Source: Nitrosopumilaceae archaeon
GTDB lineage: Archaea > Thermoproteota > Nitrososphaeria > Nitrososphaerales > Nitrosopumilaceae
DNA: 45,612 nucleotides
Direction of reading: 5' to 3'
NCBI GenBank assembly: GCA_965200155.1
Contig: CBDATR010000035.1
Span: 1 to 45,612 of the forward strand
The position numbers and the translations under genes are program-made. Below the pieces are notes generated by a model that made no database searches, was not told the origin of the DNA, and was given only the letters and a program-made list of their open reading frames with translations. Shown one piece after another: positions 10,089-34,930 of the stretch (the stretch's first letter is position 1; each line of letters starts with the position of its first letter).

Positions 10089-10114
10089 ACCACTCTCTTA
10101 AAAGGAGCGATCAT
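10089..10114 (-). promoter_or_regulatory. island promoter motif
   Basis: ATGATCGCTCCTTTTAAGAGAGTGGT; TTTTAA starts 27 bp before the protease GTG. Confidence 0.7.
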
Positions 10115-10130
10115 AATCTCATGTGTCCGG

Positions 10131-10490
10131 TTACTCAATATCAATCCCGGCTTTCCTTAACTTGTTAACACCAAAGACTTTCTGCATCTCATATCTCACA
10201 TTAACACTGCCCCACTCCCACATATCTTCCAGGTCTATATTATCTCCAACTTTCTGGTATCCCAATTCCTCCAGCATCATTCTCTTGGAATGATCCCCAC
10301 ACCACTTCCATAGTTGTTCAATACCTATGGCGTCGGCGACATCCTTGTAACCGACCTCTCTTAGGACCCATCTCTGCTCCATTCTCTCATGGCACGTGTT
10401 CCATATTTCATCAAGGGTGTACGTGTTTCCGGGGACCAGCATTTTGTTGAAGATATCTAATCTTCTATATCTTTTCATGTTTAGTATCAT
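10131..10490 (-). CDS. hypothetical protein with an internal repeat
   Basis: Open 119-aa ORF; LREVGY..V.D.I..E.LW.W and LEELGY..V.D.I..E.MW.W. Confidence 0.7.
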   Translation of the reverse strand: MILNMKRYRRLDIFNKMLVPGNTYTLDEIWNTCHERMEQRWVLREVGYKDVADAIGIEQLWKWCGDHSKRMMLEELGYQKVGDNIDLEDMWEWGSVNVRYEMQKVFGVNKLRKAGIDIE

Positions 10491-10538
10491 TCATGATTAT
10501 ATATATAACCATATAAATTATGGTTGCGCCGCTATAGT

Positions 10539-10563
10539 ATGACCCGCCTTTTAAGGGAGTGAT
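10539..10563 (+). promoter_or_regulatory. island promoter motif upstream of tfb
   Basis: ATGACCCGCCTTTTAAGGGAGTGAT; TTTTAA starts 29 bp before the ATG at 10578. Confidence 0.75.
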
Positions 10564-10577
10564 TCACCGTTCCCGAA

Positions 10578-11405
10578 ATGGTAAAACATTGCGATGACTG
10601 CAAATCACCCATAATGATACATGACACTGAACGGGATGAGTACTATTGTAATTCATGTGGTGTTGTTACGACCGAGCACATGCAAACCGGAGTACGCGCC
10701 GATGAATCCAGTCCCTTTGTTGGTAACTCTACCATCATAGGGAATACAAATAACTCGGTAAAACTACGACGGCTAGACCAGTGGGTTGCAAGAAGTGCCG
10801 TCCGTCCCGCCATATCCCGCTCAAACATGAGCCGACTTAGGGCAATCCATGACAAGCTGAATGTCCCAGAGAGTGTTTATGAGAGGGCCTCCAGCATATA
10901 CAAGACGAGTACATGTGGGAAGCAAAAGGGCCTACAATTAATCATAATGATGACAGCGTGCCTGTACGTAGCCTGCCGGGAGTCCGGGGCACCCAGAACA
11001 CTCCGTGATTTATCCAAGATAACAGGCGTGCCGGTCAAGGGAATCGCAAGGTATAGTAGATGGATAATGAACACGAATCATTCCTCACCATCCCAGTATA
11101 CTTTTCCCGTTCTTATAACGCGGGCCGGAAATACCACCGGCTCCAGTCCCACATGCCAGAGAGTTGCAGCAGAGATGGTAGACAAACTACCTGGCTCATT
11201 CACGTCAGGCAAGAACCCCATGGTGATGGCCGCGGCAGTTCTATGTGTGGCGGCAAGGACGCTGGGAGAAGAGCACTCCACCACTGACCTTGGTGATGCG
11301 TTAATGGTGAGCGCCGCATCCGTACGTACTAGAGCAAAGGAGATAGAGAATCATTTGGGGATACCACTGAATCAGTCATATGAGGGCGCCGATAGACCTC
11401 ACTGA
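10578..11405 (+). CDS. tfb: divergent transcription factor B (TFIIB family) paralog
   Basis: Zn ribbon CDDC/CNSCG; cyclin repeats ACLYVACRESGAPRTL and SGKNPMVMAAAVL. Confidence 0.9.
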   Translation: MVKHCDDCKSPIMIHDTERDEYYCNSCGVVTTEHMQTGVRADESSPFVGNSTIIGNTNNSVKLRRLDQWVARSAVRPAISRSNMSRLRAIHDKLNVPESVYERASSIYKTSTCGKQKGLQLIIMMTACLYVACRESGAPRTLRDLSKITGVPVKGIARYSRWIMNTNHSSPSQYTFPVLITRAGNTTGSSPTCQRVAAEMVDKLPGSFTSGKNPMVMAAAVLCVAARTLGEEHSTTDLGDALMVSAASVRTRAKEIENHLGIPLNQSYEGADRPH

Positions 11406-11455
11406 ATCTGTTTCCTGGCATAAAAAATAAAATACCAACAACCATCATTCAAACC

Positions 11456-12066
11456 ATGAATATACACGCTCCCGGTATGCAGGGGGAAATGTATTGAAAC
11501 ATACTCTTCCGGTGATGCCAATCAGTTACGTTGAGCTTGTGTCACAAGCACATACGGGATTACTCTCATGACATGTGAGATAATCAACGAGGGACTAAGT
11601 CCTGACGAGGTCGCTACAAAGGAACGCCACGGGGAATATAAACAGTCAAGGCCAGAGAGTGACTTGGGGCGGGCCATTCGTCGGTATTATCTGAGCAGAA
11701 CGTCATTCTCTGGAATAATGAAGTCGAATAATTACTACTTTGGGTATGGAGAATAGTATGCCCCCTCAGAACTGGGGCCAGCTCATCCAGTTTGAGAGAG
11801 TGATAAATGAGTCACCGAATGACTCTTTCCTGTTTATCGACCCACCATATCAGGAAAGATTTTACACGCACTCATTTTCCAGGGATAATCACGGTTGCAG
11901 AACGTCCCATACAATAGACGGCTCAAGTTCCTGCCGGCATATGATGAAATACCGGTGGGTAGACTATAAAGAGCAACGATGGAATTATACCATCAATGGA
12001 ATGGATGATAGTTGGTTTCAGTGGAGTCCGGGACAAGGGAAACAAATTATTAATACGGAATTATAA
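11456..12066 (+). pseudogene. Dam/D12-class adenine methyltransferase, fragmented
   Basis: RYAGG-type start, YYLSRTSFSG and FLFIDPPY motifs lie in different frames. Confidence 0.75.
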
Positions 12067-12761
12067 TGTCTGATGAATTTCACATCTTTAGTGGGATAGA
12101 CGAGTACTGTGAGACGTACAACATTTCGCGCGAGCACTTGCTGGATACATTACAAGACCAGAAGGTGTTACCGATTATTCGCGGAAAAATCACCGAATAT
12201 ATAGGAGCCGCCGTCCTGCGTCAGGCGCTTGATTCACGGGAGTGGCTGGTGGAGTTGAACCTGCAACAGGGCGTCTATGATAATATCAGTATCACACACA
12301 GAAGAACCGGGAAACGGTTGAAAGCCGAGACGAAAACCGCCCTACGGGGAAAATTCAGTATGGGAATAAGAAGTGTACCGGCACCACACTTCATAGTCAG
12401 ATGCTACAAGCCCAGGAGTAATTTTCTGAAAGTTCATGATGACAGGTATAAGGTAGGCGACTTTGATGTTTTGTTGACTAATGTTTCGAATTCAATATTC
12501 CGTGGGCATTCACTTGATCGCGGCCTGCCGCTAATCCGGAATGAAACACCCCTGAATTGGCTCAAGACGTTCTATGGCGCCAGTAATGATGATGAGTTGC
12601 GGCGGTACTCTTATGATGACTGGCGCGCCTGCTTACTTAGAACCATATCACTGGAGGATGGAACAATTCCAAGAACACCAAAAGTTCTCATGGTGGGTGA
12701 TGCCAACTGGTTCGGTCTGGGTTCATTACAGGATAACCTCCTTCAACTGAATCATGCATAG
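12066..12761 (+). CDS. putative type II restriction endonuclease
   Basis: Overlaps the MTase stop (TAATG); RGKITEY...D...AETKT resembles a PD-(D/E)XK arrangement. Confidence 0.55.
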   Translation: MSDEFHIFSGIDEYCETYNISREHLLDTLQDQKVLPIIRGKITEYIGAAVLRQALDSREWLVELNLQQGVYDNISITHRRTGKRLKAETKTALRGKFSMGIRSVPAPHFIVRCYKPRSNFLKVHDDRYKVGDFDVLLTNVSNSIFRGHSLDRGLPLIRNETPLNWLKTFYGASNDDELRRYSYDDWRACLLRTISLEDGTIPRTPKVLMVGDANWFGLGSLQDNLLQLNHA

Positions 12762-13066
12762 TGCCGGTTATTATGTTCCCGGACCAGTCTCCTAGCATCA
12801 AATATACTCCATACCCAGAAGGCAAGAGCAGCCACAGACATTACTATGGGAATTATAGTTTCTATAGTCAAAATGAACCCCAACACAGCTCCACCCCATA
12901 GAATAAAATTCCCGAACAGTATGATAATACCCCGTTTTATCATTCCCAGATAGACATGACCAATCCCACACAGTCCGAATATTCCAAGGACAGATGCCAG
13001 AATTAGTGTAACGCCCTCGTCCTTGTGTTCGTGTCGTGGTGGCTCGGCAGCCGGTACCTCACTCAT
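12752..13066 (-). CDS. TM2-like small membrane protein
   Basis: GLCGIGHVYLG..KRGIIIL pattern; hydrophobic helices. Confidence 0.75.
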   Translation of the reverse strand: MSEVPAAEPPRHEHKDEGVTLILASVLGIFGLCGIGHVYLGMIKRGIIILFGNFILWGGAVLGFILTIETIIPIVMSVAALAFWVWSIFDARRLVREHNNRHYA

Positions 13067-13361
13067 TATAATAATGGTTCTAACATTCTATGGTTAAAGG
13101 GTAGACATGAGTCTTCCACATGTGAATTAATGGGAGACATATGACAGGAACCACCATGGCATCGAGGCCGGTGACGGCGGCATTCCATATAACTAAATCA
13201 TCTGATTCCAGGAATCGCTCATGGTGCGGCGGGCTTTGTCTGTTTCCATAGCGCAGATTCCCAAGCAAATTCCTTATCATCCCGCTCTAACAAAGAACGG
13301 ATACCATTCATCGCGATGAATCTATTCTCATGAATTATTCCATGCGGTATGGTGCAAGAGT

Positions 13362-13480
13362 GTATGAGTTCACGTCTTGGAACCGGTTCCAATCTTGTGC
13401 ACAAAAGAACCGGTTACTCTTTAACTGTCGCGATCAGTTATAGAATGACCCGTTCCATTTAGACACAGGTGAACTCATAC
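13362..13480 (+). mobile_element. MITE variant (119 bp) with three internal replacements
   Basis: TIRs plus TSD GCAAGAGT. Confidence 0.93.
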
Positions 13481-13974
13481 GCAAGAGTAGCTATCCCGGT
13501 CTTGAATACCCCCCTATAGAACAGGTTCAGTACTGTCCATCGTTATTCCATGGAACCATAACAGTTCCTGTTAATGGTTCCCAAAATGTGGAGGTATAGC
13601 CGTCATGGATATGACAGTCTGGTTTTTAATATTACAAATTGATACATAATGATAGTATTATATTAATTGCCATACTATGTATATTATACAAAAAGCAGCA
13701 TGGGAATGATTGGGTCATTTGCTCTGATGAGCCCCATGCCTTTGATGAGATGATTGATGTAGAGATAAAGCGAAAGTTTGGCAAGTTCTTTTACTGGAAT
13801 GGGAAGAGAGTGAACCAAGTCATAGTGGACAAGAATATGGGGAAACTACCAGTTGGTTGATGCCAATCTTTGTGTGGGTATGACGTCTTTTGCTCAGCAG
13901 AGTCATGCAATGAATACGCCCTGCACATGGGCCGCTGTGAGAAACATCAGCGGTAACGATCCGGTAAGTTTTAA

Positions 13975-14555
13975 CACTTTTTGTCATTCCTAGCGGTGGT
14001 CCTATTTGGACTGCCTGGGGAATTCGAAAATGTCAGTGATGCCAATGTTATGGACCATTCTTAATGGTATGGGTTTTATTACTGAAACAGTCTGCCTGCT
14101 CCATTCTCATCAAAGGAATAATCGATGGAATGGTATCTGCCGTCCTTATGGAGGCATCCACACTTGTCATCATGCCTAGAATGGGTATGGGACCGGCTGA
14201 TTCCTTGGCGATATCATGGACTAGTAATGGATCATCGCCAACGTCCCTACCCATCATGGCAGGAAAGATTCAGCTCAAATCCTTGAAATAATGGTACTGT
14301 AATCCTCCGGCCTGCTACCCGCCAGTCTATGACCGGAAAGTCATGATATTTCAGGTTCTCGGCATGCAGGCGCCGGGGTTTCCAATGGCATTGAGATAGC
14401 CACCACTACTCAATAGTAGAAAGTTGTGAGCAGGATAACCACTCCTTGGCTTGAGTGTTATGGTTTTTGTTACAACGGTGGCCACCCCGCTTTTGTAATG
14501 GTGTCCCCGCGGCCATCATTATGGGACCTCGTTAGGGAACCGATCGTCACCCATT
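13975..14555 (-). pseudogene. pyrD: dihydroorotate dehydrogenase, heavily frameshifted (boundaries approximate)
   Basis: Fragments read by hand: IMMAAG, VVTKTITLKPRSGYP, YLNAIG/NPGA, GFELNLSC, DVGDDPLLV and AVQIG. Confidence 0.75.
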
Positions 14556-14889
14556 ATTCCCGGTAATGTCCCGGAACACGCGCTGCTATCTGTTTTATGT
14601 ACGCGCAATCCCGGACGGCGCTAGATTGAATGATACGTTCCGGCATCATGTATTCCTGATTATTCTATCGTGATCAATAATAGAATCCTGTAACCTGGTT
14701 ATAGTGAATGCCACAAGAATTGGCATAATTAGGGATTTCCAAAATTATTTACTCAAAAAAAAGCCACTAACACGAGTATGTTGGACAGTATAGGACTGGT
14801 GGCGGCCATCACATACATTCGTCATCGGCCATTATGTCATTGGCGCGATTGCCATTCTGTTTTCTGTGGTTGAATAAGGCGTTCATCCT

Positions 14890-15411
14890 AAGTGGTGTAC
14901 ATGGTTCCCGGCACTATTCGGGATGAACCAACAATGAGTCATTCAGAACATGGATTGTTGTGGGCCACGTTGCGGTGGTCATCTGTCTACTTTACGATTT
15001 TTGAGTGGAATGTGATTCTATTGGCGGCATTGATCGGGAGACTAGTCACACAGCATACCATAATGGCTTGGTGGTCTGCAAGGAAGATGGGAATGATGCC
15101 ATCTGGTGGTGAATAAGTCACTGAATGAATCACGCCCGGATCAAAACAACAACATAGCCGTCCGCGCAAATTGAGTCCATTCTGCAAAAGGGATTGAATC
15201 ATCCCCATATATGGAGCCCACCAATAGAGTAGTAGAACCTGTTCTTCTGGGAATGATTCCCGTATGAGTTCACGTCTTCCGGAATCTTATGCACAAATCA
15301 CATTAACTGTCGCGATCAGTTGTGCGTAAATTTAGACACAGGTGAACTCATACTGATTCCCGGCCAAAGTCCACACCAGTATTACACCAATCTAATCACG
15401 TGAACTCATAC
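14890..15411 (+). mobile_element. decayed IS66 remnant ending in a right end
   Basis: Ends CACGTGAACTCATAC at 15411; 15150-15400 is homologous to the reverse complement of 29048-29185; left boundary approximate. Confidence 0.65.
15262..15353 (+). mobile_element. 92-bp MITE nested in an IS66 remnant
   Basis: TIRs plus TSD TGATTCCC. Confidence 0.97.
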
Positions 15412-15505
15412 TGTAACAGACCGGTGAGGTATATTCCCAGATGTGACATTCCTCACATCTGAGCTCCGTATACCATTGCCCACACATATCCTTGCTTGGA
15501 TATGA

Positions 15506-16237
15506 TCATGTCATGCAGTGCCCACTAGTGCAATAATTCTCATCATCGGTCTCACCAAAATCCATGAAATCGGTTATCAAGCCGCTATCCCGTATACTCG
15601 TTAAAGGTCGTCCATGCATGAGTGGTGTACTGGTATTGGCATTCTTTTCCATTTGTACAGCTTTCTCGAACAAGTCGGGGTATTCTATGGAGAGTTCCCG
15701 GATTTTACTCCTTGACTGGAAGGGACAGTAATAACAGCCCGACTTTATTGGTGCAGGGTAGCCTGACTCAGTTATGATATCAAGGCATCCCTGACGGGTT
15801 ATCTTGTGGTCTATCAACGGGTACTCGACCTTGATGTATCTGGCCATGGAATCATAGCGGGCCCTATGCGCCTCATCATAAGCTATTCCCACTCCCATTA
15901 TTATCGGGTCCCGGAAGACATTCCCAAGGCTTCTCACCCATTTTTTTATGGGCACTATTTTATGATCAGTGGTGCACCATCGTTTCGACATTAGTGGTAT
16001 CATATTTTTTTTCATGCAATGCTGTAATAGCGAGTCCCATCTCCAGTGTTTTGTGGTTACAAATTCTATTCTATTCTCCTTGCAGAACGGCTTTACAACT
16101 TCCTCAATATGTTCATAGGTCTGGGGCATCTCATCACCCGTATCACTGAACAAACAGTAGTCATATCTTTCCGGCCACCTTAGTAATATGGCGAATGTGT
16201 TAACGCCGCCGCCATAGGAGAGAACGGAACGTGCCAT
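15506..16237 (-). CDS. PAPS-reductase/adenine nucleotide alpha-hydrolase family protein (phage/MGE type)
   Basis: SYGGGVNT PP-loop-like motif, DTGDE, WCT and KSGCYYCPF; start placed at MARSVLS, 27 bp after the promoter motif. Confidence 0.8.
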   Translation of the reverse strand: MARSVLSYGGGVNTFAILLRWPERYDYCLFSDTGDEMPQTYEHIEEVVKPFCKENRIEFVTTKHWRWDSLLQHCMKKNMIPLMSKRWCTTDHKIVPIKKWVRSLGNVFRDPIIMGVGIAYDEAHRARYDSMARYIKVEYPLIDHKITRQGCLDIITESGYPAPIKSGCYYCPFQSRSKIRELSIEYPDLFEKAVQMEKNANTSTPLMHGRPLTSIRDSGLITDFMDFGETDDENYCTSGHCMT

Positions 16238-16253
16238 GCATGGCGACGCCACG

Positions 16254-16274
16254 CTTCAATAAAAGGCAGGTCAT
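16254..16274 (-). promoter_or_regulatory. island promoter motif
   Basis: ATGACCTGCCTTTTATTGAAG; TTTTAT starts 27 bp before the ATG at 16237. Confidence 0.6.
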
Positions 16275-17579
16275 GCCTACTTGAAAATAATCCCGACCTT
16301 GTCGTGGAATAGTTCCAGGTATTGTTCCATTACCGAAGCAAGATTATCCCTGGGCCTCCTGTTCAGTTCTCCCGAATGAGGTGGCTGCCGGGTAAGAGTG
16401 ACACCGGGTAATGAAGCCTTCTTGAACGGGCTCTAGATGATGGTTCTATTGAAGCTCGGCCAAAGATACACTTGTCTTCAATCTTTCGTAACTCGTCCAA
16501 TGATGATTCAATGACAGGTTTAAACTCCACTCATTCCAGTAACCATTCCCCCGAATGAATCAGCCATATTCAGAGTCATGGAGGGGTATCATTAATGGTT
16601 CTATAAGATGGCTACATGACTTTTTGAGCAAAAATCCCGGGACATTATGGAATGGTCTAACAAATATTCATCATTCTTGCCCAGAGTGGTCCATATCTCT
16701 CCCGCTGGGCTCAAAGATGTGCATCAGGGCTCATCAATATCGGCTAGCTCTGTTTTAGCAGTGTACTCAGTGACTCGGCGCCGAACATGTAACATGAACT
16801 ACTATCACGTGGTTTGATTATGGAGTAAACATTCTCGCCGACAATCTCGTACTTATTTGTATGGAAACCATCACGATATCACCCAGTCCGGGAAATCCCT
16901 TTGTCTCATGCTCGGTCACTCTAAGTGGTTATTTTGCACCACCCGCCGTATTTCGTTCCTGAACTAATTCCAGAACGTCCTCTTCCGGTACCACTATTAC
17001 CTTATTGTGGAATGAGCCCCGCTTGACGCCGCCGTACTTTGCTATTGTCCTCTGAGAACTGGTATGTCTCTATGGACATTTCTACATCCCCCATCATGCC
17101 TATGAACACAGCCCTCCATTTTGAAGTTCAACATTTCCTAGTTCCCCTCTACAATGCTTGCATCACAATCATGTACGGAATCATGGGAACCGTCCTCGTT
17201 GAGATCCTGGATACTTATGGAATATGTTGGAGACCCGTACATGTATCAGTTCCTATCATACCTACATCATCGTCTGTGATCTTGTATAACTCCCATTCAG
17301 GGGATGTAACCAGAACGATGTAGCCTACATCAGGGAAGCCATTCCCTCGCTCTGTTATTCTTAACTTTGTCATCTTATATACTAGGGTTAATGGGTTATC
17401 ATGTTAATTCATATCAGATATGCAAGGTTTTACCTGAAGGACTGGCGTGTCTTCTAGTCCTTTAATGCCTGTCACTGAGTTACCTAGAACAGTCACATGC
17501 TAAAATTTTCCCATCAACTCGATAATACAAAATGAATCAGCGCATATATCATTAAATATAATGCGAAAGTAGTTCTCTC

Positions 17580-17909
17580 ATGGGCAAGTTTTTGAGTAGA
17601 GCACTGCGTGGTGCTAGTAAGGTACTGGAACGAGGAGTCGAATCCGCGGACAATATAATTGACGGGCCGGTTACCGACAGGATAAAACACGTGACTGATT
17701 CCGGCAAAAATACCGTTAACCGAGTATCCGAGAGCGTGCATCACAAGACTGTGACGGATGCGGCGCCGGAAGTGAACGAGGAGTCGACAGAAGAGAGTCA
17801 TACAGTACAAGAACCACAGAGCCCCCTGTACATGCTCAAGATAAAATTCGTGAACGGGGAGATCACACAAGAAGAATACCAGATGAAGAAAAGAATTCTG
17901 GAAAGCTGA
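17580..17909 (+). CDS. SHOCT-domain protein
   Basis: C-terminal PLYMLKIKFVNGEITQEEYQMKKRILE. Confidence 0.8.
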   Translation: MGKFLSRALRGASKVLERGVESADNIIDGPVTDRIKHVTDSGKNTVNRVSESVHHKTVTDAAPEVNEESTEESHTVQEPQSPLYMLKIKFVNGEITQEEYQMKKRILES

Positions 17910-18062
17910 GCGTTTTTCCACTATGGTTTTTGTTATATCTATGGCTATTCGTCCAGGAATGATAGTATGTCATTATTCCGAACAGGGTAGTACCATTGGT
18001 GTTATCTCCTCAACCGGAACACAGGGGGACAGACTGTGTATAAAGGGATACAATCATGAGAC

Positions 18063-18359
18063 CTACCAGTCGCCGGGAATTTGAATGGTCATGTTTGACT
18101 CTATAACAGCCATGAATGGGACCAGTAACAGTAGTGGTATGAGATGTAGCGGGCTCTTGTGGATTATTTCATTAACATATTGCTCCATTATTGTAGCCTG
18201 GTTGCGGGCTTTTGCTAGTTTTTTCTTCAAGAGGTGAATATACAAGAGTGATACAAAAAATAATGTTATCAGCAAGGGGATCAGTACCGTGGCTATATCA
18301 CTCATGTAGATAGGATTATGGTGTGCGGTACCGTAATCAGTCCAAACATTCCTGTTCAT
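18063..18359 (-). CDS. small hypothetical membrane protein (start uncertain)
   Basis: Hydrophobic stretches; island promoter motif at 18367-18391. Confidence 0.5.
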   Translation of the reverse strand: MNRNVWTDYGTAHHNPIYMSDIATVLIPLLITLFFVSLLYIHLLKKKLAKARNQATIMEQYVNEIIHKSPLHLIPLLLLVPFMAVIESNMTIQIPGDW

Positions 18360-18366
18360 TTGATGA

Positions 18367-18391
18367 ATCATTCCTTAAAAGGAGGGGTCAT
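18367..18391 (-). promoter_or_regulatory. island promoter motif
   Basis: ATGACCCCTCCTTTTAAGGAATGAT. Confidence 0.6.
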
Positions 18392-18703
18392 GGTTCTATC
18401 ACTGCGCCTTGCGTGGCCCGTATACCAATGCATATGGTATAGACGTGAACATAGCGTTATCAGTAATAGTAGTCACCGGTAACACTGATGGAATGGGAAC
18501 GCTTCCGGCAACCATATCAAGTATTTTTGCCGGTCGGTGCCACTATTCTCCAAGGATTTACCATTAGATAGGAAATGTAGGCCGCCATCTCAAAAATGCT
18601 ACACTTCCGGCCTATTCGTCATTATTCTCTCTAATGGTGGTCATGTTGGTGCCTTGGGTAATAGGGTATTTTCCGTCACCAAAGTCCTCGGTTAATGATC
18701 ATG

Positions 18704-19369
18704 TCACCGCATCTCTTTCAAATCATATTGCTCCAGCCTCAGTAGGAAGGGTGCCGCATACTCGCGGGGATTAGACTTGAACACCTGCATTGTATCCTGC
18801 TCTGATGACACTATAATGACACACTGGTTCACCTCTATTCCACTCAAAGTCTTGAGCATCATACAGTATGCGGATGTTTGGAGGTAGTAATCGATAATCC
18901 AGTCCGGCTCCTGCCTTGCCCGTTTCGTTTTATAGTCAATTATACTCAATACACCATCATACTCGGCTATACAGTCGGCCATACCGGCTATACGCATTTC
19001 ATCCGAGTATAGTGGAACTTCTGTTCCGTGAATCATGTCTATTTTGTTTAGTTGTGGCAAGAAATTCTCAAAGTGTGCTCTTGCGAATAACCCATAATCT
19101 TTCTGCTCCTTTCCATTCAAATAATCCTCATTCAGCTGGTGAACCTTTGTTCCCATGTCTGCTGCATAACTCATGATGTAATTAGCGACCTGTTTCCCCA
19201 TACGCTCCCGCCACTGTTCCAGTCCACTCTTATCCTTCGTACTACCTAGAATGGTAGTAACTGACGGGTAAAGTTTACCGGCCGGTGTCCTGTAATGGTG
19301 ATCCTCTGTAAGTGTTGCCCTTGGTATACTCAACGGTACGTGTGTCTTCATTGTGGTATGGGGGTTCAT
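18704..19369 (-). CDS. PD-(D/E)XK exonuclease (phage-type, Cas4/MGME1-like)
   Basis: YPSVTTIL, GTKVH, AGMADCI, IIDYKT and YYLQTSAY; start chosen at MNPHTT. Confidence 0.85.
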   Translation of the reverse strand: MNPHTTMKTHVPLSIPRATLTEDHHYRTPAGKLYPSVTTILGSTKDKSGLEQWRERMGKQVANYIMSYAADMGTKVHQLNEDYLNGKEQKDYGLFARAHFENFLPQLNKIDMIHGTEVPLYSDEMRIAGMADCIAEYDGVLSIIDYKTKRARQEPDWIIDYYLQTSAYCMMLKTLSGIEVNQCVIIVSSEQDTMQVFKSNPREYAAPFLLRLEQYDLKEMR

Positions 19370-19441
19370 GACCAAATAAAAGAGCAGGCCATGTTGTAGC
19401 TGTGCCCAATGATGGATGTGCAAACCGTGAGGTATATTTTC

Positions 19442-19467
19442 ATGACCGCTCCTTTTAAGGGAGTGAT
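19442..19467 (+). promoter_or_regulatory. island promoter motif
   Basis: ATGACCGCTCCTTTTAAGGGAGTGAT; TTTTAA starts 28 bp before the ATG at 19481. Confidence 0.75.
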
Positions 19468-19480
19468 ATTCCGCCGTACC

Positions 19481-19609
19481 ATGTCAAAAACAACAATTGA
19501 TGGTCTCCGGGACACACTGGAAGACTTGGGAAAAGCCGAGGACAAGTACCAGACATTGCGACGGAGAACAGAGGCAATCACAGAAGCAATACACTTGCTA
19601 AAAGAATAG
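19481..19609 (+). CDS. 42-aa helical microprotein
   Basis: MSKTTIDGL...HLLKE, at the expected distance from the promoter motif. Confidence 0.55.
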   Translation: MSKTTIDGLRDTLEDLGKAEDKYQTLRRRTEAITEAIHLLKE

Positions 19610-20847: not shown

Positions 20848-20872
20848 ATGACCCACTTTTTAAGGGAGTGAT
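20848..20872 (+). promoter_or_regulatory. island promoter motif upstream of thyX
   Basis: ATGACCCACTTTTTAAGGGAGTGAT; TTTTAA starts 32 bp before the ATG at 20890. Confidence 0.75.
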
Positions 20873-20889: not shown

Positions 20890-22485
20890 ATGGCCGAGTC
20901 ATTTACCAACTCAGAAAAATCATCACTGGAACGACACTTCTCCAATACTGACAAGAATGTATTCGTTATTACAACCCCAAACCAGGTAGACAGGGGCGCC
21001 CTCATGAGCCGCTATTCCAGGAGTCCCAAAAGCATGCGACGAATATTCTTGGACGAGTTCCTGAACCAACCTGATCGGGGGGCTAAATTCTATGACAAGG
21101 TACTAGCAGAATATGGTGATGACTCTGTGGCGGAATTGGGGCAGGTCCAGATAGCCATAGAAGGAGTATCAAATGTTGCTATACAAACCATAGAGGACAG
21201 GCGCATAGGTTTGTCATTCCTGGAAAAGTCAAGCCGTTACGTCTCCTGGGAATCAAAGCCCTACAAGTACTATTTCGGGAAGGACATGGAGTCATCGCCG
21301 TTCGCGGATGCATACAGGGAATCATGTGAGATGTCATTTGACACTTATGTAAAGTCGTTAAAGATAATGATACCATACCTGTATGAGATTCATAAGATAG
21401 AGTCATACTCGTTCCATGATTCGAATAGTGATGCTGATGCACCATTCTCAAAACTGCGTGATTCAAGTGATATAGCGCGGGCTAATAGAATATACCGGAG
21501 AACGATAAAGGCCAAGGCACTGGATACTGTTCGGGGGTTGCTTCCCGCGTCTACATTAACGAATGTTGGAATAGCCGGGAACGGGCGAGCATTCGAATAT
21601 TTGGTCTCAGTCATGAAATCATCAAGGTTGCCGGAAATTCAGGAACTTGGCGACTCCATATTACATTCCATAAGAAAAGTGATGGGCCCGTTCATGAAGC
21701 GTGCCGATGACAAGTATGGAAATGAGCTGCAACAATACCTGAATACCATAAAAACGTGGAAGCCGCCTGTAATGAAACGCGAAGCACCATGGGAACCTAT
21801 CAATCTCATTCAGTGCGAGAATGAAACCGACTCACTAGATAATATAATGGCCGGACTATTCCACGAGAACGGGAACCGTTCTTTCTCGACTACTCTACAT
21901 AATGTCAAGAGAATGTCATTGAATGAAAAGAAGAACATACTAGAACACTTCATTAGTATAAGGCAGAACAGGCGACACCGCCTGCCTAGGGCCTTTGAGT
22001 TAGTATCATACACATTCGAGATTATCAGTAATTTTGGCGTGTTCCGGGACATACACCGTCATAGAACGTTAACCATGCAAAGGCAGGATTTGAGTACCAA
22101 CTATGGCTTTACAATGCCTGCACTGATTGAGAAGGCCGGACTGAATAAAGAGTGGTTAGAGTGTATGCGACATACCAGAACCACCTATCAGGATATGGTA
22201 GGAATAATACCTGAGCAGGCCCAGTACGTGGTGAATTTCGCTCATAACTACCCATATATGATGAAAGTGAACTTGCGGGAGTTATGCCACATGATAGAAT
22301 TGAGAACCATCCCACAGGGCCACCCGGACTACCGTCACATCATGCAGAACATGTACGAGCAGGTTCAGGAACGGCACCCATTATTATCGAGAATGATAAA
22401 ATTTGTCAACATGTCTGATAATGACTTGAACCGGCTAGAGTCCGAGAAGAGAACGAATGAGAAAATACAAAATATCACCATGTAG
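20890..22485 (+). CDS. thyX: FAD-dependent thymidylate synthase, long two-domain thaumarchaeal type
   Basis: [34 protein letters not shown] and [13 protein letters not shown]. Confidence 0.93.
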
Positions 22486-25238: not shown

Positions 25239-25464
25239 TAGTCCCATCATTCCATAATGACCGGACCGTCATTATAAAGCCCGATAGGGAATTCGCCCGG
25301 CGCGCCAAGGTATACATCATATAATCACACTGGGAGGCTACTACATGCATGGAACCACCATAGGTGGGGAGGCTACTAGGAGGCGGTTTACCCGGCCAAC
25401 CATGGGGCGGCCACACCCGCCCAACCATAGACGTCAGGACGGGATATATGGCGACAAGCCTACC

Positions 25465-25556
25465 GTATGAGTTCGCCTGTGTCTAAATTTACGCACAACT
25501 GATCGCGACAGTTAATGTGATTTGTGCACAAGATTCCGGAAGACGTGAACTCATAC
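25465..25556 (-). mobile_element. 92-bp MITE
   Basis: TIRs (one mismatch) plus TSD AGCCTACC. Confidence 0.97.
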
Positions 25557-25662
25557 AGCCTACCGTCCAGGAACGAGGCACCATGTTCAGAGTTATGATG
25601 GCCACTATAACCATCAGTGCACATGAACGTGATTTAAAAAGCAAGGAGAAATAACAATTAAC

Positions 25663-25944: not shown

Positions 25945-26535
25945 TGGAATACAGACGTGAATCAGTTGGAATCCAGTATGCGAGTCTCAGCCAAGGGTTG
26001 TATTTTCCAGTACCGGAAACAAAAGTCTATGTGGTTCCCGATCCCAATGGCGACATTTTGCGAGAGGGCGACTACTTGTTAGTATGAGTTCACGTCTTCC
26101 GGAATCTTGTGCACAAATCACATTAACTGTCGCGATCAGTTGTGCGTAAATTTAGACACAGGTGAACTCATACACTTGTTAGGCGAGATAGATGGCAACC
26201 ACTGTTTTGTAGTTAAGGTGAGAGGCCTGTTGAGAATGCTGGACGGCACACAAATGAATGGTGTGTATCATGTCTATTCCTGTGAAATGTACACAGGTGA
26301 GATTAAGGATATACCACAAGAGAGAAAGATGCTAAACAAGGTACTGGGCTTTGTGCAGAATGAGAAGGATCACATCGGCTCGGTCATTCCATGCAAGGAT
26401 GATGAGGGTTTGTTCTGGTTTGCTACCATGACACCGCATGAAATACAGAAGCGTGTTGATGAGAACCCGCTACTGACACTCAGTCCAGTGTGGGCTGAGA
26501 TTACAATGCTTGCAAGGAGGCCCGCTCATGTCTAG
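25944..26535 (+). pseudogene. hypothetical gene interrupted by a MITE
   Basis: Starts at a TAATG overlap with the wHTH gene; removing the MITE and one TSD joins MEYRRES...EGDYLL in frame to GEIDGNHC. Confidence 0.8.
26082..26173 (+). mobile_element. 92-bp MITE
   Basis: TIRs plus TSD ACTTGTTA. Confidence 0.97.
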
Positions 26536-26769: not shown

Positions 26770-26794
26770 TAGACCATGCCTCTTACCTCTGTAA
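26770..26794 (+). promoter_or_regulatory. promoter motif subtype
   Basis: TAGACCATGCCTCTTACCTCTGTAA, 24/25 identical to 34111-34135 (minus strand). Confidence 0.6.
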
Positions 26795-26851
26795 CAAACA
26801 AGTAGTTCTAACATGGAAAGTGTCTTTTTTTGTACAAAGAATGATAAAAAC

Positions 26852-26977: not shown

Positions 26978-27136
26978 TTCCCGGTTTTTTGAATTATACT
27001 AGTGTCAAAACATCATTGGAATGCCTTATCCTTCCGCTTCCATCTTGTTATGATACTACTCCTCTCTCAAGGCGCCCATCTCCACAAATTTCCAGAGATA
27101 TTGTTTTGTCTCTTCCGGCACGGCCATGGAATTATT

Positions 27137-27159
27137 CCTCCCTTAAAAGGGCGGGTCAT
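27137..27159 (-). promoter_or_regulatory. island promoter motif
   Basis: ATGACCCGCCCTTTTAAGGGAGG; in-frame ATG and GTG 21 and 27 bp downstream. Confidence 0.65.
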
Positions 27160-29370: not shown

Positions 29371-29372
29371 CC

Positions 29373-29531
29373 CCCTCATTGGGCGGGTAAACCGCTCCCT
29401 CATTGGGCGGGTAAACCGCTCCCTCATTGGGCGGGTAAACCGCTCCCTCATTGGGCGGGTAAACCGCTCCCTCATTGGGCGGGTAAACCGCTCCCTCATT
29501 GGGCGGGTAAACCGCTCCCTCATTGGGCGGG
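29373..29531. repeat. 24-bp perfect tandem repeat, 6 full copies plus a partial
   Basis: CCCTCATTGGGCGGGTAAACCGCT, no spacers. Confidence 0.97.
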
Positions 29532-29562
29532 AATGGTAGCCCCTTTGTTTACACATCTGGGG

Positions 29563-29654
29563 GTATGAGTTCACGTCTTCCGGAATCTTATGCACAAATC
29601 ACATTAACTGTCGCGATCAGTTATGCGTAAATTTAGACACAGGTGAACTCATAC
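29563..29654 (+). mobile_element. 92-bp MITE
   Basis: TIRs plus TSD ATCTGGGG. Confidence 0.97.
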
Positions 29655-29900
29655 ATCTGGGGCGGTATGTAGTCTGTTGTGGTGGGCACCCCTCATTGGG
29701 CGGGAATGGTCGCCCCTTTGTTTACCTTTCAGGAGGCTTGCAAAGGGCTCAAAGTAATCTATCCTAATTGGGCGGGAATGGTCGCCCCTTTATTTACCGC
29801 ACCCAATTGGAATCATTCCCGCTCACTGCTACCGCACATTCTAGCTGGCATTAATTCCGTTATGTGTACTCTGTCGGGACAGGATATACGCCAGCCTTTC

Positions 29901-30099
29901 TGGTTGGACGGCTAGAACAATTTCGTGGCTATGCCACCCCATGGTTGGACGGCTAGAACAATTTCGTGGCTATGCCACCCCATGGTTGGACGGCTAGAAC
30001 AATTTCGTGGCTATGCCACCCCATGGTTGGACGGCTAGAACAATTTCGTGGCTATGCCACCCCATGGTTGGACGGCTAGAACAATTTCATGGCTATGCC
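29901..30099. repeat. 41-bp tandem repeat, 4 full copies plus a 35-bp partial
   Basis: TGGTTGGACGGCTAGAACAATTTCGTGGCTATGCCACCCCA. Confidence 0.97.
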
Positions 30100-30161
30100 G
30101 CACTCTCATACAAGCCAGGTTGGCATCTGAACGCGTGAGCCAACTTAAACTGAGAAAAAAA

Positions 30162-32292
30162 TTAACTAGTGATGGTAAAGGTTACAGTGTTGGACATGGT
30201 ATGAGTTCCTGAGGGTCCAGGGGTTCTCACAAATGCCGTATATGTGTCAGCATCTAGGTCTTCGAGGGTATAGGAGTTAGTTGATACGCGTGCCGCTCCG
30301 CCAGTAATGACTCGGTCTCCGTCCCCATCAAATACCGCCACGATATAGGCAGTATCTGCCAAGTCGTTCCAGCTTAGAGTAACATCATTGCCACTTATGG
30401 TTCTACTTAGTACTAATGTCTGACTGTTATCAGGTGATGTCTGACTGTTATCAGGTGATGTCTGACTGTTATCAGGTGATGTCTGACTGTTATCAGGTGA
30501 TGTCTGACTGTTATCAGGTGATGTCTGACTGTTACTAGATGTAGTGAACTGTAGGATTCCCAGCCTTCCAACATCGGGTTCACAGGATTTAAACACACGT
30601 ATGGTGTACGCAGTATCAGGTGAGAGGCCCGTAATTGTTAAGGGGTTTGATTCGAAATCCTCTAAATCAGCACTTGCAGCTCCGGAGGAGGTTTTGAAGA
30701 TAGCGGCGGTTGTACAGGTTGGGTCTTTTGTATTATAGTCCTCTGAGGCGACCTCTATAGTTACAGAGGTGCTATTTTGAGTTTTGATTTGGGGTGGATT
30801 AATACCAGGGTCACTTACGGTAAGTACAAATTCATCACGTTTAGTGTCGCTGCCAGCAGTTGCTGTGACACGTAGAGTGTATTCCCCTGCTGCTGTTCTA
30901 TCAGGCTCCAAAACGAGGGTACTATCTGATATTTTCGCAGAGCCAGGTAATGTCTTGTCGTTCAGGACCTCTACACTATATGTAATGTCCCTATTATCAG
31001 AATCAGTTGCATTTATCTGTATGTTACGTGCTGTGCCCTCGGCCATGGTAATGTCATTTATGGTGTCAGTGAAGCTTAGGGCGGAGGAGCCAGTATTGAC
31101 ATTGAAGGTTGCTAAACCTATATCTTCGCATTCGTTGATCACACGGATGGTGTAATCAGTATTAGGTAAGAGGTTTGTGATTGTCATGGTACCATGAATA
31201 GTCAGAGATTCGGTCAGTTTATACTTCAATGGAGAAGATTCAGAGACATCAGCCATCATACAAAGATGTGAGTTTTTAACATCTTTTGGTTGAGTTCCAG
31301 GTACTTCAATAGTTATAGAATTTGGTGTTATTTCTGAGATACTAGGTGGATCTATAGTGCCGTCATTCACGGTAAGTGCAAAGTCCTCATGTATGGTGTC
31401 GCTACCAATAGTTGCTGTGACACGCAGTGAATATTGTCCACTTTCGCTTCTGTTAGGAGCCAAAACAATGCCGTCTCTAAATGTACGGTCAGGAGATACG
31501 TCAGCTATGTATGCAAATCTGGGTGCAGCCGTGCCGTCCTGTTTGGTTATTGCATATGTGACAGAATCACTCGCAGGGGTTACACTGAGTGGTATGGTTC
31601 TTCTCTCGGACTCATCCATGGTAATGTCTGGTATAGTATTAATGGAACTAGAGGGAGCGACTTTTGTCTTAAAGAATACAAGGTTGGACTTGACAAAGCC
31701 GTCTCCAATTGTTCTGACAAATACCCTATAGTCGGTGTCAGGAGTCAGTCCGGTAATATCATGTGTGGTTCCGGTAACGCGTGTTACCCCAAGTCTATCT
31801 CCATCTCCATCACGTAACGCCACGACATATTTGGTATCAGTTTTGTACTGATTCCATGTAACGGTGGCACCAGTGGAGGTAGGAGTTACTGTAAGACCGG
31901 ATATTGGACGGTCTTTCTTAATGACCGATATGGTGAAATCCTCGGTGTCCCACCCGTGTGTGTTGTCCTCGGCGGTGACGGTTATGGTAACAGAGGATGG
32001 GCTATAAAAGCTGGGCGTCCACGTAAAGTAGCCAGTAGAAGAGCGTAATGTGGCACCTGGTGGGGCGTTTTTCATGGTGTATGTTATGGGGCCGCCATCG
32101 CCACCCATGGCATCTATCCAAAACGCAATTGTACCGCCTTCAGCTACACTCTGTGGTTCTATGTCTAGTATATATAAGGCAAACGCAAGATCAGTGGCCG
32201 GTACTAATACTAGTAAAAGTGCAAGGAGGAGACCCCCCCCCCCCGATTAAAGCTTTAAGTGCGATATTGCTACGGTTCGTAGATTGTAACAT
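30162..32292 (-). CDS. FN3/cadherin-like surface protein, frameshifted at a G12 tract in the signal peptide
   Basis: TGLTPDTDYRVFV, NLLPNTDYTIRV and APPGATL..TGYFTWTP motifs; the ATG at 32292 joins the 648-aa ORF if G12 becomes G11 or G14. Confidence 0.85.
30416..30534. repeat. 21-bp coding tandem repeat (SQTSPDN linker), 5 copies plus a partial
   Basis: ATGTCTGACTGTTATCAGGTG. Confidence 0.97.
32233..32244 (-). promoter_or_regulatory. poly-G12 candidate phase-variation tract
   Basis: 12 C on the + strand, inside the signal-peptide coding region. Confidence 0.65.
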
Positions 32293-32336
32293 TTTAATAA
32301 AATATGGTCGATAGTATATTAGTATTGTCATCACAT

Positions 32337-33481: not shown

Positions 33482-33569
33482 CACGTGTTTGTGTTAGGCC
33501 AATAATTTGCATCTATAAACTTGGTTTAAACGTGTAAGGTGGGGCAAGTGATTCTGCGCATAACGTCTA

Positions 33570-33914
33570 TTGTCGGAATTATCCTCATAAACGCGCCAGA
33601 TGCATCCATCTTATCATACCGGAATGGCATTTCACTCAACCAATCGGCGCCACCATTACCATTCCTCATTAGATGGATGAAACTGGCGCGCGTAAACAGG
33701 CTCGCCGATATCTGCCACCAGTATATAATTCCGGCAAGTCGAATATGTCCACTTCCTCCAGTCATGAAAAACGTTCACCGCCATGTTGAACTGGAAAGCC
33801 CGCCCATAACTTCGGCCCGGCGCGTCAGGGAGTGATTCTAGATGACGGTATGATTATCATGGCTCATTCTAGGACTGATCCCTTGTACCATTCCAAGACT
33901 TATGGTGACCGCTA
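33570..33914 (-). mobile_element. truncated second copy of the TIR-tnpB element (left end and 5' tnpB)
   Basis: Near-identical to 24049-24393; homology stops just outside the TIR (AC-TA|TAGCGG). Confidence 0.88.
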
Positions 33915-33930
33915 TAGTACAAGGGAAATG

Positions 33931-34092
33931 TTACTTTTCTCTGTTATATGACCAGTCTGCCGGCACACAAAAAGTGGGATAATCATCCTTTGCCTCGTCC
34001 TTCATTCTCTCGGCTTCCTCCCAGTCATACCCCTCATAGATGGTCCAATTTGTTCCATCCTGTACTTTGATGTATACTCTCAATTTTTCCAT
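33931..34092 (-). CDS. 53-aa hypothetical protein
   Basis: Translated by hand: MEKLRVYIKV...WSYNREK; preceded by the promoter motif. Confidence 0.55.
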   Translation of the reverse strand: MEKLRVYIKVQDGTNWTIYEGYDWEEAERMKDEAKDDYPTFCVPADWSYNREK

Positions 34093-34110
34093 GTTATAGT
34101 AATCTGTTCA

Positions 34111-34135
34111 TTACAGAGGTAAAAGGCATGGTCTA
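34111..34135 (-). promoter_or_regulatory. promoter motif subtype
   Basis: TAGACCATGCCTTTTACCTCTGTAA; TTTTAC starts 32 bp before the ATG at 34092. Confidence 0.6.
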
Positions 34136-34294
34136 GTCATAAAATACAGCAGACCAACCCGTGTCTTTTGTTTCCCGGTATATTCTGCCTGCTCCCTGTC
34201 AAGTCCGTCATAAAGGATAGAAATACCATCGGGTAGATAATAAGTACTTCATGCTGGAATGGTCATTAGAAGGCATGGTCGAGTATTCCAGCCC

Positions 34295-34316
34295 ATGACC
34301 CGTCCTTTTAGGGGAG
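34295..34316 (+). promoter_or_regulatory. island promoter motif
   Basis: ATGACCCGTCCTTTTAGGGGAG; shares the upstream ATTCCAGCCC with the 27159 copy. Confidence 0.6.
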
Positions 34317-34906
34317 CGACTAATGACAGAACACGATACCCAGGCCACTTTTCGATAGTCCGGAAGAGGCACTTGGTTTTTCACACTGATTCTAATCGGT
34401 GTGGGCGCGGTTTTTACTTTTGCCGCTCTCGGTTCGCTGTCTATACCTCATGAGACCATTATCGAATCCCTCACGGCTTATGTGGACGGCATTGTCATAA
34501 CCGGTTACACCGGTTCAGAACCATTCTGTCACCATTCACGAGATGAGAGCAGGCCACTTGATGATTTCCTAGTATAATGGTGATTCTAGTAGGTACTCTT
34601 TTCATAGAGTCAAATCATGACGACTATTCCAGCGATATAGTGGGGGCATCACTTGCGTAAGAGTGAATAATGTGTGATGCAACGAATAACGGCTTTGTGG
34701 TGACAGTTGAAGGATTCTCCACCGTCAATCATATCACTCCAGCCGGGAACCATACAACCCTTCATAATAGACGGCAAGGGCAGCTTTGCAAATGTCCTGG
34801 ACATAATGAGAACAGTCCCGGATTCATCCACTCCAAGTGTAACCGGAACTGACGTACCAATCAGCACCACGTCCCAAGCTTTAGCAACTGAGATCACACA
34901 TTCAGC

Positions 34907-34930
34907 ATGACCGTCCTTTTAAGGGATCAT
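34907..34930 (+). promoter_or_regulatory. island promoter motif
   Basis: ATGACCGTCCTTTTAAGGGATCAT. Confidence 0.6.

Follow-up and report, generated by a model that had tools for sequence, protein, structure and literature searches.

We analysed a recurrent promoter-like motif in a 45,612-nucleotide stretch of DNA (the window) from a Nitrosopumilaceae archaeon (assembly GCA_965200155.1, here G000). The window is a whole contig, CBDATR010000035.1 or C35, one of 51 in the 2.38-Mb assembly. A sequence-only reading had noticed the motif ATGA(C/T)C-N4/5-TTTTA in an island there, and had proposed that it is a private promoter class read by a dedicated, island-encoded TFB. The observation is real and stronger than had been noted: the motif, termed class A here, is one of two island-specific, evolutionarily conserved promoter classes. 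That the motifs of both classes, A and B, are indeed promoters is very probable. The best overall explanation, which we regard as probable, is that class A is the core promoter of a class of genes on an island resembling an integrative conjugative element (ICE), and that it is read by factors encoded on the island. For comparison we used two complete genomes congeneric with G000 (G100 and G135) and, as family background, a sample of 150 other Nitrosopumilaceae genomes, nine of the same genus and including the unpublished G077, on which no specific claim depends. The thermosome gene assigns G000, a sponge-associated ammonia-oxidising archaeon, to the Nitrosopumilaceae; the public sequencing runs that contain G000 DNA are sponge metagenomes and metatranscriptomes.

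All 11 sites of the sequence-only reading, nine of the form ATGA(C/T)C-N4/5-TTTTA and two with TAGACC, are present, each at its coordinate and on its strand. ATGAYC-N4-TTTTA occurs four times in the window and ATGAYC-N5-TTTTA five times, with 0.11 expected for each from dinucleotide-preserving shuffles; together, nine were observed against 0.22 expected in 45.6 kb, and none of 100 shuffles reached the observed count. The fuller class A consensus is (C)CATGACC-N2/3-CC-TTTTAA-GGGAG-(T/G)GAT. The sites, their variants and the open reading frames (ORFs) associated with them are as follows.

9231..10076, minus strand: trypsin-like peptidase gene (Pfam Trypsin_2, E 3e-19); its G100 and G135 orthologs keep a class A type promoter
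10089..10114, minus strand: class A promoter ATGATC-GCTCC-TTTTAAGAGAGTGGT, T-run 27 nt before the protease GTG
10539..10563, plus strand: class A promoter ATGACC-CGCC-TTTTAAGGGAGTGAT, 29 nt before the ATG of TFB1
15506..16237, minus strand: PAPS-reductase-like gene (PHROG 424, E 3.9e-33; Pfam match weak)
16250..16274, minus strand: class A promoter ATGACC-TGCC-TTTTATTGAAGCGTG, 27 nt before the in-frame ATG at 16237
18366..18391, minus strand: class A variant ATGACC-CCTCC-TTTTAAGGAATGATT, with the ATG of a 98-aa membrane-like ORF at 21 nt
19366..19393, minus strand: class A-like variant CATGGCC-TGCTC-TTTTAT, 30 nt before the in-frame ATG 19351 in the PD-(D/E)XK nuclease gene 18704-19423
19442..19467, plus strand: class A promoter, 28 nt before the ATG of the 42-aa ORF 19481-19609
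20848..20872, plus strand: class A promoter, 32-33 nt before the thyX ATG at 20890
20890..22485, plus strand: gene for a ThyX-domain protein of 531 aa (Pfam Thy1, E 3.6e-44)
26770..26797, plus strand: TAGACC-ATGCC-TCTTAC subtype with a degenerate TATA
27134..27159, minus strand: class A motif in a decayed Type ISP junction, GGAGG 9 nt before ATG, no ORF of at least 30 aa
34108..34135, minus strand: TAGACC-ATGCC-TTTTAC subtype, 32 nt before the 53-aa ORF; a paralogous ATGACC copy lies at C22 53327
34295..34320, plus strand: class A motif in a decayed copy of the Type ISP junction (ttccagccc), no downstream ORF
34907..34931, plus strand: class A motif, no downstream ORF of at least 30 aa
C22 27199-29619: intact Type ISP copy with a Type_ISP_C domain

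The spacings reported earlier were reproduced. Measured from the T-run, the start codon lies at 27 nt for the protease (GTG), 29 for tfb, 27 for the PAPS-reductase-like gene, 28 for the 42-aa ORF, 33 for thyX (32 from the second T) and 32 for the 53-aa ORF. The remaining copies had been placed before decayed ORFs at shorter spacing; 27159, 34295 and 34907 have no downstream ORF of at least 30 aa, and 18391 has its ATG at 21 nt. The thermosome promoter lacks the motif, as had been said; its upstream region holds an A/T-rich box and no ATGACC or C-rich element. On other contigs, class A precedes the genes for TBP3 (GTG, 28 nt) and a 176-aa membrane protein, and it occurs at a class II ribonucleotide reductase (RNR) gene with a spacing of 43 nt and at a Type ISP methylase/specificity half with a spacing of 21 nt. 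In the island RNR (C22:33091-35835, minus strand, 914 aa), two stretches match the barrel domain, and the large insert is intein-like.

We then examined where else the motif occurs. The simple pattern is found 25 times in the genome (nine on C35, six on C22, three on C9, two on C43 and five singletons). A two-block weight matrix gave 25 genome sites at 20 bits or more, compared with 1-3 in three mononucleotide shuffles; by contig, these sites fall on C35 (9), C22 (7), C43 (4), C9 (3), C12 (2) and C5 (1). None was found on the large core contigs C10, C24 and C34, which together comprise 1.29 Mb; the motif is absent from core genes. Seven copies are duplicated or decayed copies of a single Type ISP restriction-modification gene junction, sharing about 10-30 further upstream bases (..ttccagccc), and two pairs are duplicates (C12 2282 and C22 46734; C22 11105 and C43 129418). 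For this reason the independent sites number about 18, not 25, and these have no similarity beyond the motif of about 26 bp.

Outside G000, the exact form is essentially absent. G000 has 15 copies of ATGACC-N4/5-TTTTARG, and 149 of the 150 other family genomes have 0-1 each, which is the chance level; the exception is G080, where another repeat, GATTTTAGG, accounts for six copies. Viral contigs scanned for ATGACC-N4/5-TTTTAAGGGAG yielded 0 matches. The same pattern matched at least 118 metagenome contigs; among the matches listed there was one match per contig, as chance predicts for 17 specified bases, and no contig with clustered motifs. The motif had been called private to the island. This holds for the exact form and fails for a generalised form, CCAYR-N3-CGCC-TATA, which marks the homologous islands of both congeners.

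The position of the motif relative to start codons was compared with that of host promoters. An expectation-maximisation motif search over the regions upstream of 1091 host ORFs of at least 200 aa was captured by copies of insertion sequence (IS) elements and was weak after removal of 575 regions sharing a 12-mer; we replaced it with positional counts and with the upstream regions of tRNA genes. Relative to the first ATG, the 1091 regions carry a leaderless signature: there is an excess of T from -30 to -27 and of A at -26 to -25, the stretch from -37 to -31 is rich in A, and no Shine-Dalgarno signal was found. Across 516 non-redundant upstream regions, TTTTA begins most frequently at position -29, within about -27 to -32. 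Upstream of the tRNA genes, a purine-rich stretch leads into TTTAAAT-like boxes. For class A, a start codon (ATG or GTG, ORF of at least 40 aa) lies 27-29 nt from the T-run at 10 of 26 motif sites, compared with 3.1% of random island positions (binomial p = 2.5e-9), and 27-33 nt away at 14 of 26, compared with 11.9% at random. Because this spacing matches that of host leaderless promoters, TTTTAA sits exactly at the place of the host TATA box. Class A thus has what marks an archaeal leaderless core promoter, an A/T box about 26-30 nt before the start and oriented to the gene. TTTTAA would be the TATA box of this core promoter, and class A mRNAs would be leaderless or nearly so, given that TTTTAA is 27-29 nt before the start codon.

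At the place of the TFIIB recognition element (BRE), class A does not have the purine- or A-rich sequence: the 4-7 nt before TATA are C-rich (CGCC/YCC). At least three C in the 4 nt before TATA were seen at only 1 of 151 core promoter-like sites. What is conserved is the unit CCATGAC-C-N2/3-CC, which abuts TTTTAA on its upstream side. The earlier proposal that GACC replaces the BRE therefore stands in part, in that class A is C-rich where the host is A- or purine-rich, but GACC itself overlaps the BRE position only partly. As proposed here for G000, the promoter would comprise C-rich ..CGCC/..YCC in the place of the BRE, CCATGAC before it, and GGGAG(T/G)GAT after the TATA box.

Other structures were considered for the motif and rejected. 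An RNA hairpin would pair a spacer that varies (CGCC, GCTCC, CACT, ACTC) with a right arm that is constantly GGGAG, so that there is no covariation; a palindromic operator is limited to the CC..GG symmetry around TTTTAA. A mini-ORF (ATG ACC ... TGA) is in frame only with the 4-nt spacer. A hidden TATA upstream of ATGACC would have to be sought in A/T patches that are present at some sites, at no constant distance, and missing at others.

The sequence-only reading had placed the motif in a small private island. That picture has to be replaced: judged by its gene content, the island is part of a region of about 150-200 kb that resembles an ICE, with four TFB paralogs and a TBP, and that is conserved in two congeners. 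Our island ORF set comprises ORFs of at least 90 aa from C35, C22 and C12, together with those in the initial 62 kb of C9 and the final 50 kb of C43. Homologs of these ORFs lie in one contiguous region in each congener (92 ORFs at 2.31-2.46 Mb in G135 and 97 ORFs at 1.59-1.77 Mb in G100). Between G000 and G100 or G135 the island homologs share 22-75% amino-acid identity, compared with 82-88% for the core thermosome. Proteins encoded on the motif-bearing contigs include an MCM, a primase large-subunit-like protein and a T2SSF/TadC-like protein, together with two ATPases.

C43 125310-127157: VirB4-like ATPase (TraG P-loop/AAA_10)
C22 37533-39758: VirD4/TrwB-like coupling protein (TrwB_AAD_bind, TraG-D_C)

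The island can be compared with thaumarchaeal ICEs as the main text of Krupovic et al. (2019, PMC6563490) describes them. Both have VirB4-like and VirD4/TraG-like ATPases and a TadC/T2SSF-like protein, and both carry their own replication genes (here MCM and the primase large-subunit-like gene) and TFIIB homologs; according to that text, all thaumarchaeal ICEs described encode TFIIB homologs. Unlike those elements, whose median length is 64 kb, the island extends over about 150-200 kb, and it holds 4-5 TFB genes and a TBP and is conserved in three congeners. The main text of PMC6563490 describes no promoter motif and never uses the word 'promoter'. It places TFIIB next to a ParB-like gene in most elements; in G000, ParB_N matches were found on C34, C19 and C30 and none on the island contigs, where TFIIB has no ParB neighbour. 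A tyrosine integrase (PF00589) was not found in G000, G100 or G135, a search that did not cover other integrase families or att sites.

The promoter class was retained in both congeners. To compare island and core, we took TATA-like hexamers 26-30 nt before the ATG or GTG of ORFs of at least 60 aa and counted those with CC directly upstream.

G000: island 12/50, core 16/291, Fisher p 1.4e-4
G100: island 34/62, core 4/72, Fisher p 1e-10
G135: island 30/46, core 4/39, Fisher p 1.7e-7

Composition does not explain the island excess, since the core windows of G135 are themselves 60-62% GC. In G100, the orthologs of the protease, TBP3, RNR, an MCM-operon gene and the 176-aa membrane protein have promoters of the CCATATAGCGCC-TTAAAT type, and in G135 the local form is CCACA-N3-CGCC-TTTTAT, once CCATGACCCGTC-TTTTAT; the form shared across orthologs is CCAYR-N3-CGCC-TATA. 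The generalised CCAYRNNNCGCCTTWWA falls within the island at 11 of 12 matches in G100 and 7 of 8 in G135, with 0 and 5 matches, respectively, for a reversed-pattern control. CCTTTTAWGG in G135 has 19 of its 23 matches within 2.31-2.46 Mb.

VirB4 is present in 41 of the 151 Nitrosopumilaceae genomes. We also looked at 120-kb windows around it in three genomes that represent more distant ICE-like lineages (G065, G028 and G041). There the VirB4 gene itself has a CC-TTAAAA or CC-TTTTAT box at 26-28 nt upstream of its ATG; the local excess of CC-TATA is small, with few sites in genomes of 56-66% GC. TFB and TBP queries gave no match at E <=1e-8 in these windows. Going by these sequences, the CC-TATA rule may be general to ICE-like elements, which we offer as a lead only.

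A second promoter class, which the sequence-only reading had not described, was found on the island upstream of transfer genes. Class B is AACCCATTAACC, (T)AACCC-ATTAAC-C, and has 14 exact copies in G000, all on island contigs: C22 (5), C12 (3), C43 (3), C35 (2) and C9 (1). The 150 other family genomes have 0-2 copies each, and the single G135 copy is inside the G135 island. Wherever an ORF is present, its ATG lies 28-33 nt after ATTAAC. Class B precedes the VirB4-like gene, genes of 694, 244 and 194 aa, and a 543-aa gene that is in an operon with a TFB we call C12-type. Its TATA core differs from that of a canonical archaeal promoter in being merely 5-6 A/T bases, flanked by CC and C. In the window it is represented as follows.

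17386..17397, minus strand: class B AACCCATTAACC, exact copy
35937..35949, plus strand: class B variant TAACCCAAAAACC, before the 1168-aa gene 35976-39482, whose G100 and G135 orthologs have ..AACCCAAAAACG..
43819..43830, minus strand: class B AACCCATTAACC, 29 nt before the ATG of the 194-aa ORF 43212-43796

At the same place, GTAACC(C)-W5-AC-G/C is found at 7 of 7 G100 orthologs (as AC-G) and at most G135 orthologs, and the islands hold 13 of the 17 TAACCYWWWWACS matches in G100 and 3 of 3 in G135. From its position, class B would appear to drive the genes of the transfer apparatus. The strongest argument for function of both classes is that promoter class has stayed constant between orthologs whose protein sequences are down to about 50% identity.

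The candidate readers of these promoters are the island's own initiation factors. The core of G000 has five TFBs and two TBPs; the island contigs add TFB1, TFB2, a TFB on C9, the C12-type TFB, which is frameshifted, a TFB2-like fragment, and TBP3.

10578..11405, plus strand: TFB1, a divergent TFB/TFIIB paralog of 275 aa with a Zn-ribbon CxxC..CxxC, two cyclin repeats and an altered helix VSAASVRTRAKEI
43844..44635, minus strand: TFB2, 263 aa, with an A/T-rich TTATATAC box upstream and no class A element
C12:18999-19911, minus strand: C12-type TFB with one frameshift between the Zn-ribbon and cyclin parts; intact in G100 and G135

TFB1 belongs to the TFB family by its Pfam TFIIB matches in two stretches and by the alignment of residues 84-262 to 1D3U_B and also to 1AIS TFBc. 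It scores 21.6 bits for Zn_Ribbon_TF, under the cut-off of 29, with CxxC..CxxC present in the sequence, and 111.5 bits against an NCBIfam cut-off of 384, which places it under the curated family threshold. No relative above 41% identity was found in the family genomes, and an index of 5.8 billion proteins gave three matches at 33% or less. As a group, the island TFBs score 83-206 bits against the curated TFIIB cut-off of 384, and TBP3 scores 120 against 270 (NCBIfam). Going by the literature on the 1D3U and 1AIS structures, the second-repeat helix of TFB is presumably the part that reads the BRE. In the core TFBs and in P. woesei TFB (1D3U, 1AIS), this helix-turn-helix reads VTEVT(I/V)RNRY; TFB1 has VSAASVRTRA and so does not have the canonical BRE-reading helix. 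The C12-type helix is STVS(L/M/V)RLRR in all three genomes, and the TFB2 type is VSTSTLSKKY or A(D/E)TTL.NRY. TBP3 retains the phenylalanines of both repeats, with different surroundings. The frameshift in the C12-type gene could reflect a pseudogene or an assembly error.

The earlier statement that the motif precedes the island tfb gene is correct (29 nt before the TFB1 ATG) and extends, outside the window, to the island tbp gene (TBP3, 28 nt to GTG). TFB1-type and TBP3 genes lie behind class A promoters in all three genomes, so that the factors fall within the very class they would serve. TBP paralogs of the G135 island match at about 2343, 2387, 2443.2-2443.7 and 2443.9-2444.4 kb (C1, 2.34-2.45 Mb), and those of the G100 island at two places (C1 1.63 and 1.747 Mb); several TBPs per island may be the rule.

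The mechanism that seems most likely is one in which the island's divergent TFB paralogs, possibly with a TBP paralog, would recognise the non-canonical sequence flanking the TATA box, and island transcription would be separated from host transcription. Because TFB1 and TBP3 are themselves behind class A promoters, a positive feedback loop would arise, with a logic like that of phage or plasmid sigma factors. Judging from sequence, we lean slightly toward the view that the island TFB and TBP paralogs read the class A and class B promoters.

One study supplied two metatranscriptome libraries, and the contigs built from them (RNA-library contigs) cover the protease, TFB1, 11055-13094, 17589-19278, and thyX through 23897. 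Such contigs cannot define 5' ends, and the libraries can contain DNA. Contigs start at 10556 and 10622 for TFB1 and at 20871 and 20899 for thyX. No listed contig of run X6 lies just upstream of the 10556 and 20871 starts, and word depth is about 1-2 at 13669-15002 and 15670-17003; in the DNA-type run X1, depth is flat at 26-35. This suggests that the libraries are mostly RNA and that cover begins near two promoters, although contig holes and depths are not counted as evidence. The 17589-19278 contigs, found in both runs, span 18392-18701, a stretch with no minus-strand ORF of at least 40 aa between the 98-aa ORF and the PD-(D/E)XK gene, and both carry about 23 unmatched letters at the 17590 end. 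This transcript may be an untranslated RNA or a longer operon transcript.

A number of points weigh against the overall explanation given here for class A. The spacer between ATGACC and TATA varies by 1 nt, and ATGACC itself is unconserved in G100 and G135, which fits a separate, fast-evolving recognition partner equally well as a TFB. The 3' half of the motif in the Type ISP copies, with GGAGG at 9 nt from the ATG, resembles a ribosome-binding site, and only 21 nt separate T-run and start codon in these copies; for RNR the distance is 43 nt. The X6 contigs begin inside GGGAGTGAT, at 10556 (22 nt ahead of the TFB1 start codon) and at 20871 (19 nt ahead of that of thyX), before the predicted leaderless start, and RNA-library contigs run through the sites 10114(-) and 18391(-). 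Among the factors, the C12-type TFB is frameshifted in this assembly, and TFB2 and the C9 TFB lack class A promoters in G000. The five core host TFBs may also be able to use class A and class B promoters. Finally, the comparison is of three related islands only and is not threefold independent evidence.

The main rival to TFB/TBP readers is a separate island regulator, an activator or repressor that would confer class specificity by binding CCATGACC and/or GGGAGTGAT around the TATA box, with host or any TFB/TBP serving as basal factors, much as archaeal virus and plasmid regulators act. We consider it unlikely. The spacer flexibility would suit such a protein, as would the confinement of the outer parts (ATGACC and GGGAGTGAT) to G000, the CC/CGCC beside TATA alone being common to G100 and G135; the ATG of ATGACC also lies beyond the BRE footprint, which is about 7 bp in the 1D3U literature, and DNA-binding proteins could be among the many island ORFs that lack a family assignment. 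However, no candidate emerged, the motif is asymmetric (its palindrome being CC..GG around TTTTAA only), which does not favour a dimeric operator, and the part conserved across genomes is exactly at the BRE position. The 4-5 island TFBs and the TBP, with their altered DNA-reading helices, would also need some other role.

Class A could instead be a promoter consensus that a foreign element brought with it, served by no dedicated factor and kept by common descent and duplication while host TBP and TFB tolerate a C-rich BRE. Duplicated DNA is certainly evident (the seven Type ISP junction copies and the C12/C22 and C22/C43 pairs), IS66 copies and about 580 repeats of about 98 bp indicate that sequence spreads easily here, and GC content in the G135 island exceeds that of its flanks. 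Yet the roughly 18 sites are alike solely in the motif of about 26 bp; the promoter class has been kept across three genomes of 45 to 66% GC with proteins at 22-75% identity; CC-TATA occurs at just 4 of 39 sites in the G135 core, which is itself 60-62% GC; and two distinct classes partition by gene function. We therefore find this account improbable.

Least probable is that the motif acts at the RNA level (as a 5' leader with a ribosome-binding site, or as a processing site) or as a non-transcriptional DNA site for partition or recombination. The Shine-Dalgarno-like AGGGAGTGAT/GGAGG, the RNA-library contigs starting inside GGGAGTGAT at two sites, and the spacing in the Type ISP copies, suitable for a ribosome-binding site, speak for it. 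Against it, the start codon is 12-14 nt past ..GAT at 10 sites, too distant for a ribosome-binding site, host genes show no Shine-Dalgarno signal, no consistent upstream TATA would make the motif a leader, changes in the spacer are not mirrored in the right arm, the window is without an Rfam match, and orientation and start-codon distance are promoter-like.

The window also holds mobile DNA of the kinds that fill the G000 genome, in which an IS66-family element and a repeat of about 98 bp (about 580 BLAST matches) abound. The repeat is miniature-transposable-element-like, and about 580 copies are unusually dense for a 2.4-Mb archaeal genome. Coding density is low on C35, where ORFs of at least 100 aa span 0.55 of the sequence, compared with about 0.75 elsewhere in the genome; we attribute this, and the decayed ORFs, to the abundance of the IS66 element and the repeat. 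The thermosome gene of the window is a recent duplication and not the core locus, because it is 96% identical to the copy on C10 and is flanked by IS and small-repeat copies. Rfam gave no match anywhere in the window.

593-1528, minus strand: IS66-family transposase element (ORF 794-1561), with dozens of copies, 89-97% identical, on most contigs
4244-6010, minus strand: thermosome gene, second copy, 96% identical to C10:255578-257317, flanked by IS and small-repeat copies
1523-1620, 2240-2335, 6484-6582, 6720-6817 and 6998-7101: copies of the repeat of about 98 bp
15259-15358, 25462-25559, 26076-26177, 29561-29658 and 40839-40946: further copies of the same repeat
29373-29531 (24 bp x 6.6), 29901-30099 (41 bp x 4.9) and 30416-30534 (21 bp x 5.7): three perfect tandem arrays, which adjoin and enter the fn3/Ig-domain surface-protein gene 30162-32108

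Several known systems resemble what we propose, in which island factors would read island promoters. Bacterial phage and plasmid sigma factors are element-encoded initiation factors with an element-specific promoter consensus, and they can activate their own genes and form cascades. By analogy the island would follow a similar logic without being a member of that group, as its machinery is the archaeal TBP/TFB system and its function is predicted. Against the canonical archaeal BRE-TATA promoter, with its A-rich BRE, TATA and proximal element (for example in the Thermococcus primary transcriptome, PMC5316973), class A is alike in having an A/T hexamer at the canonical distance, with leaderless geometry identical to that of the host, and differs in its C-rich BRE place, the extra upstream CCATGAC and the downstream GGGAG(T)GAT. 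Sulfolobus TFB3, in the account of Feng et al. (2018, PMC6101594), switches on a gene set that includes DNA-transfer machinery (ups pili, ced), and as a TFB paralog with a dedicated gene set including DNA transfer it is a functional analog. That protein is described there as truncated, without a DNA-binding core, acting via other factors, chromosomal and damage-induced; the island paralogs, unlike TFB3, are full-length (Zn ribbon, two cyclin repeats, altered helix-turn-helix), and their promoters differ at the BRE. In haloarchaea and ammonia-oxidising archaea the TFB (4-11) and TBP (2-5) families are expanded, with alternative promoter selectivity proposed (Abby et al. 2020, PMC7554672). The passages of that paper on these families tie no distinct cis-element to a paralog, whereas here two promoter classes co-occur with specific paralogs on one element. 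In their descriptions of the elements and gene families concerned, these papers make TFIIB genes on thaumarchaeal ICEs (PMC6563490) and TFB/TBP multiplicity in ammonia-oxidising archaea (PMC7554672) already known; in the literature searched we found no description of element-specific BRE/TATA classes.

It is a long-standing question whether archaeal TFB and TBP paralogs are sigma-like, each with its own promoter, and clear paralog-tied cis-elements have been hard to find. In the present case, two non-canonical promoter classes are confined to one island with its own TFBs and TBP, and the class of each promoter is kept across three diverged genomes. More tentatively, and with some doubt on our part, the island might have an initiation code of its own, in which class A (replication, nucleotide metabolism, TFB1, TBP3) and class B (transfer, the C12-type TFB operon) would each be read by a different TFB together with an island TBP; such a code would be sigma-cascade-like, insulated from the host, conserved and co-evolving across this genus of sponge symbionts, and possibly general to such thaumarchaeal elements. 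The promoter class also marks island genes and so helps to delimit such elements in fragmented metagenome-assembled genomes. These data offer an explanation of why thaumarchaeal ICEs always carry TFIIB genes, and the island makes a sigma-like role of TFB and TBP copies testable with concrete promoter sequences and protein pairs.

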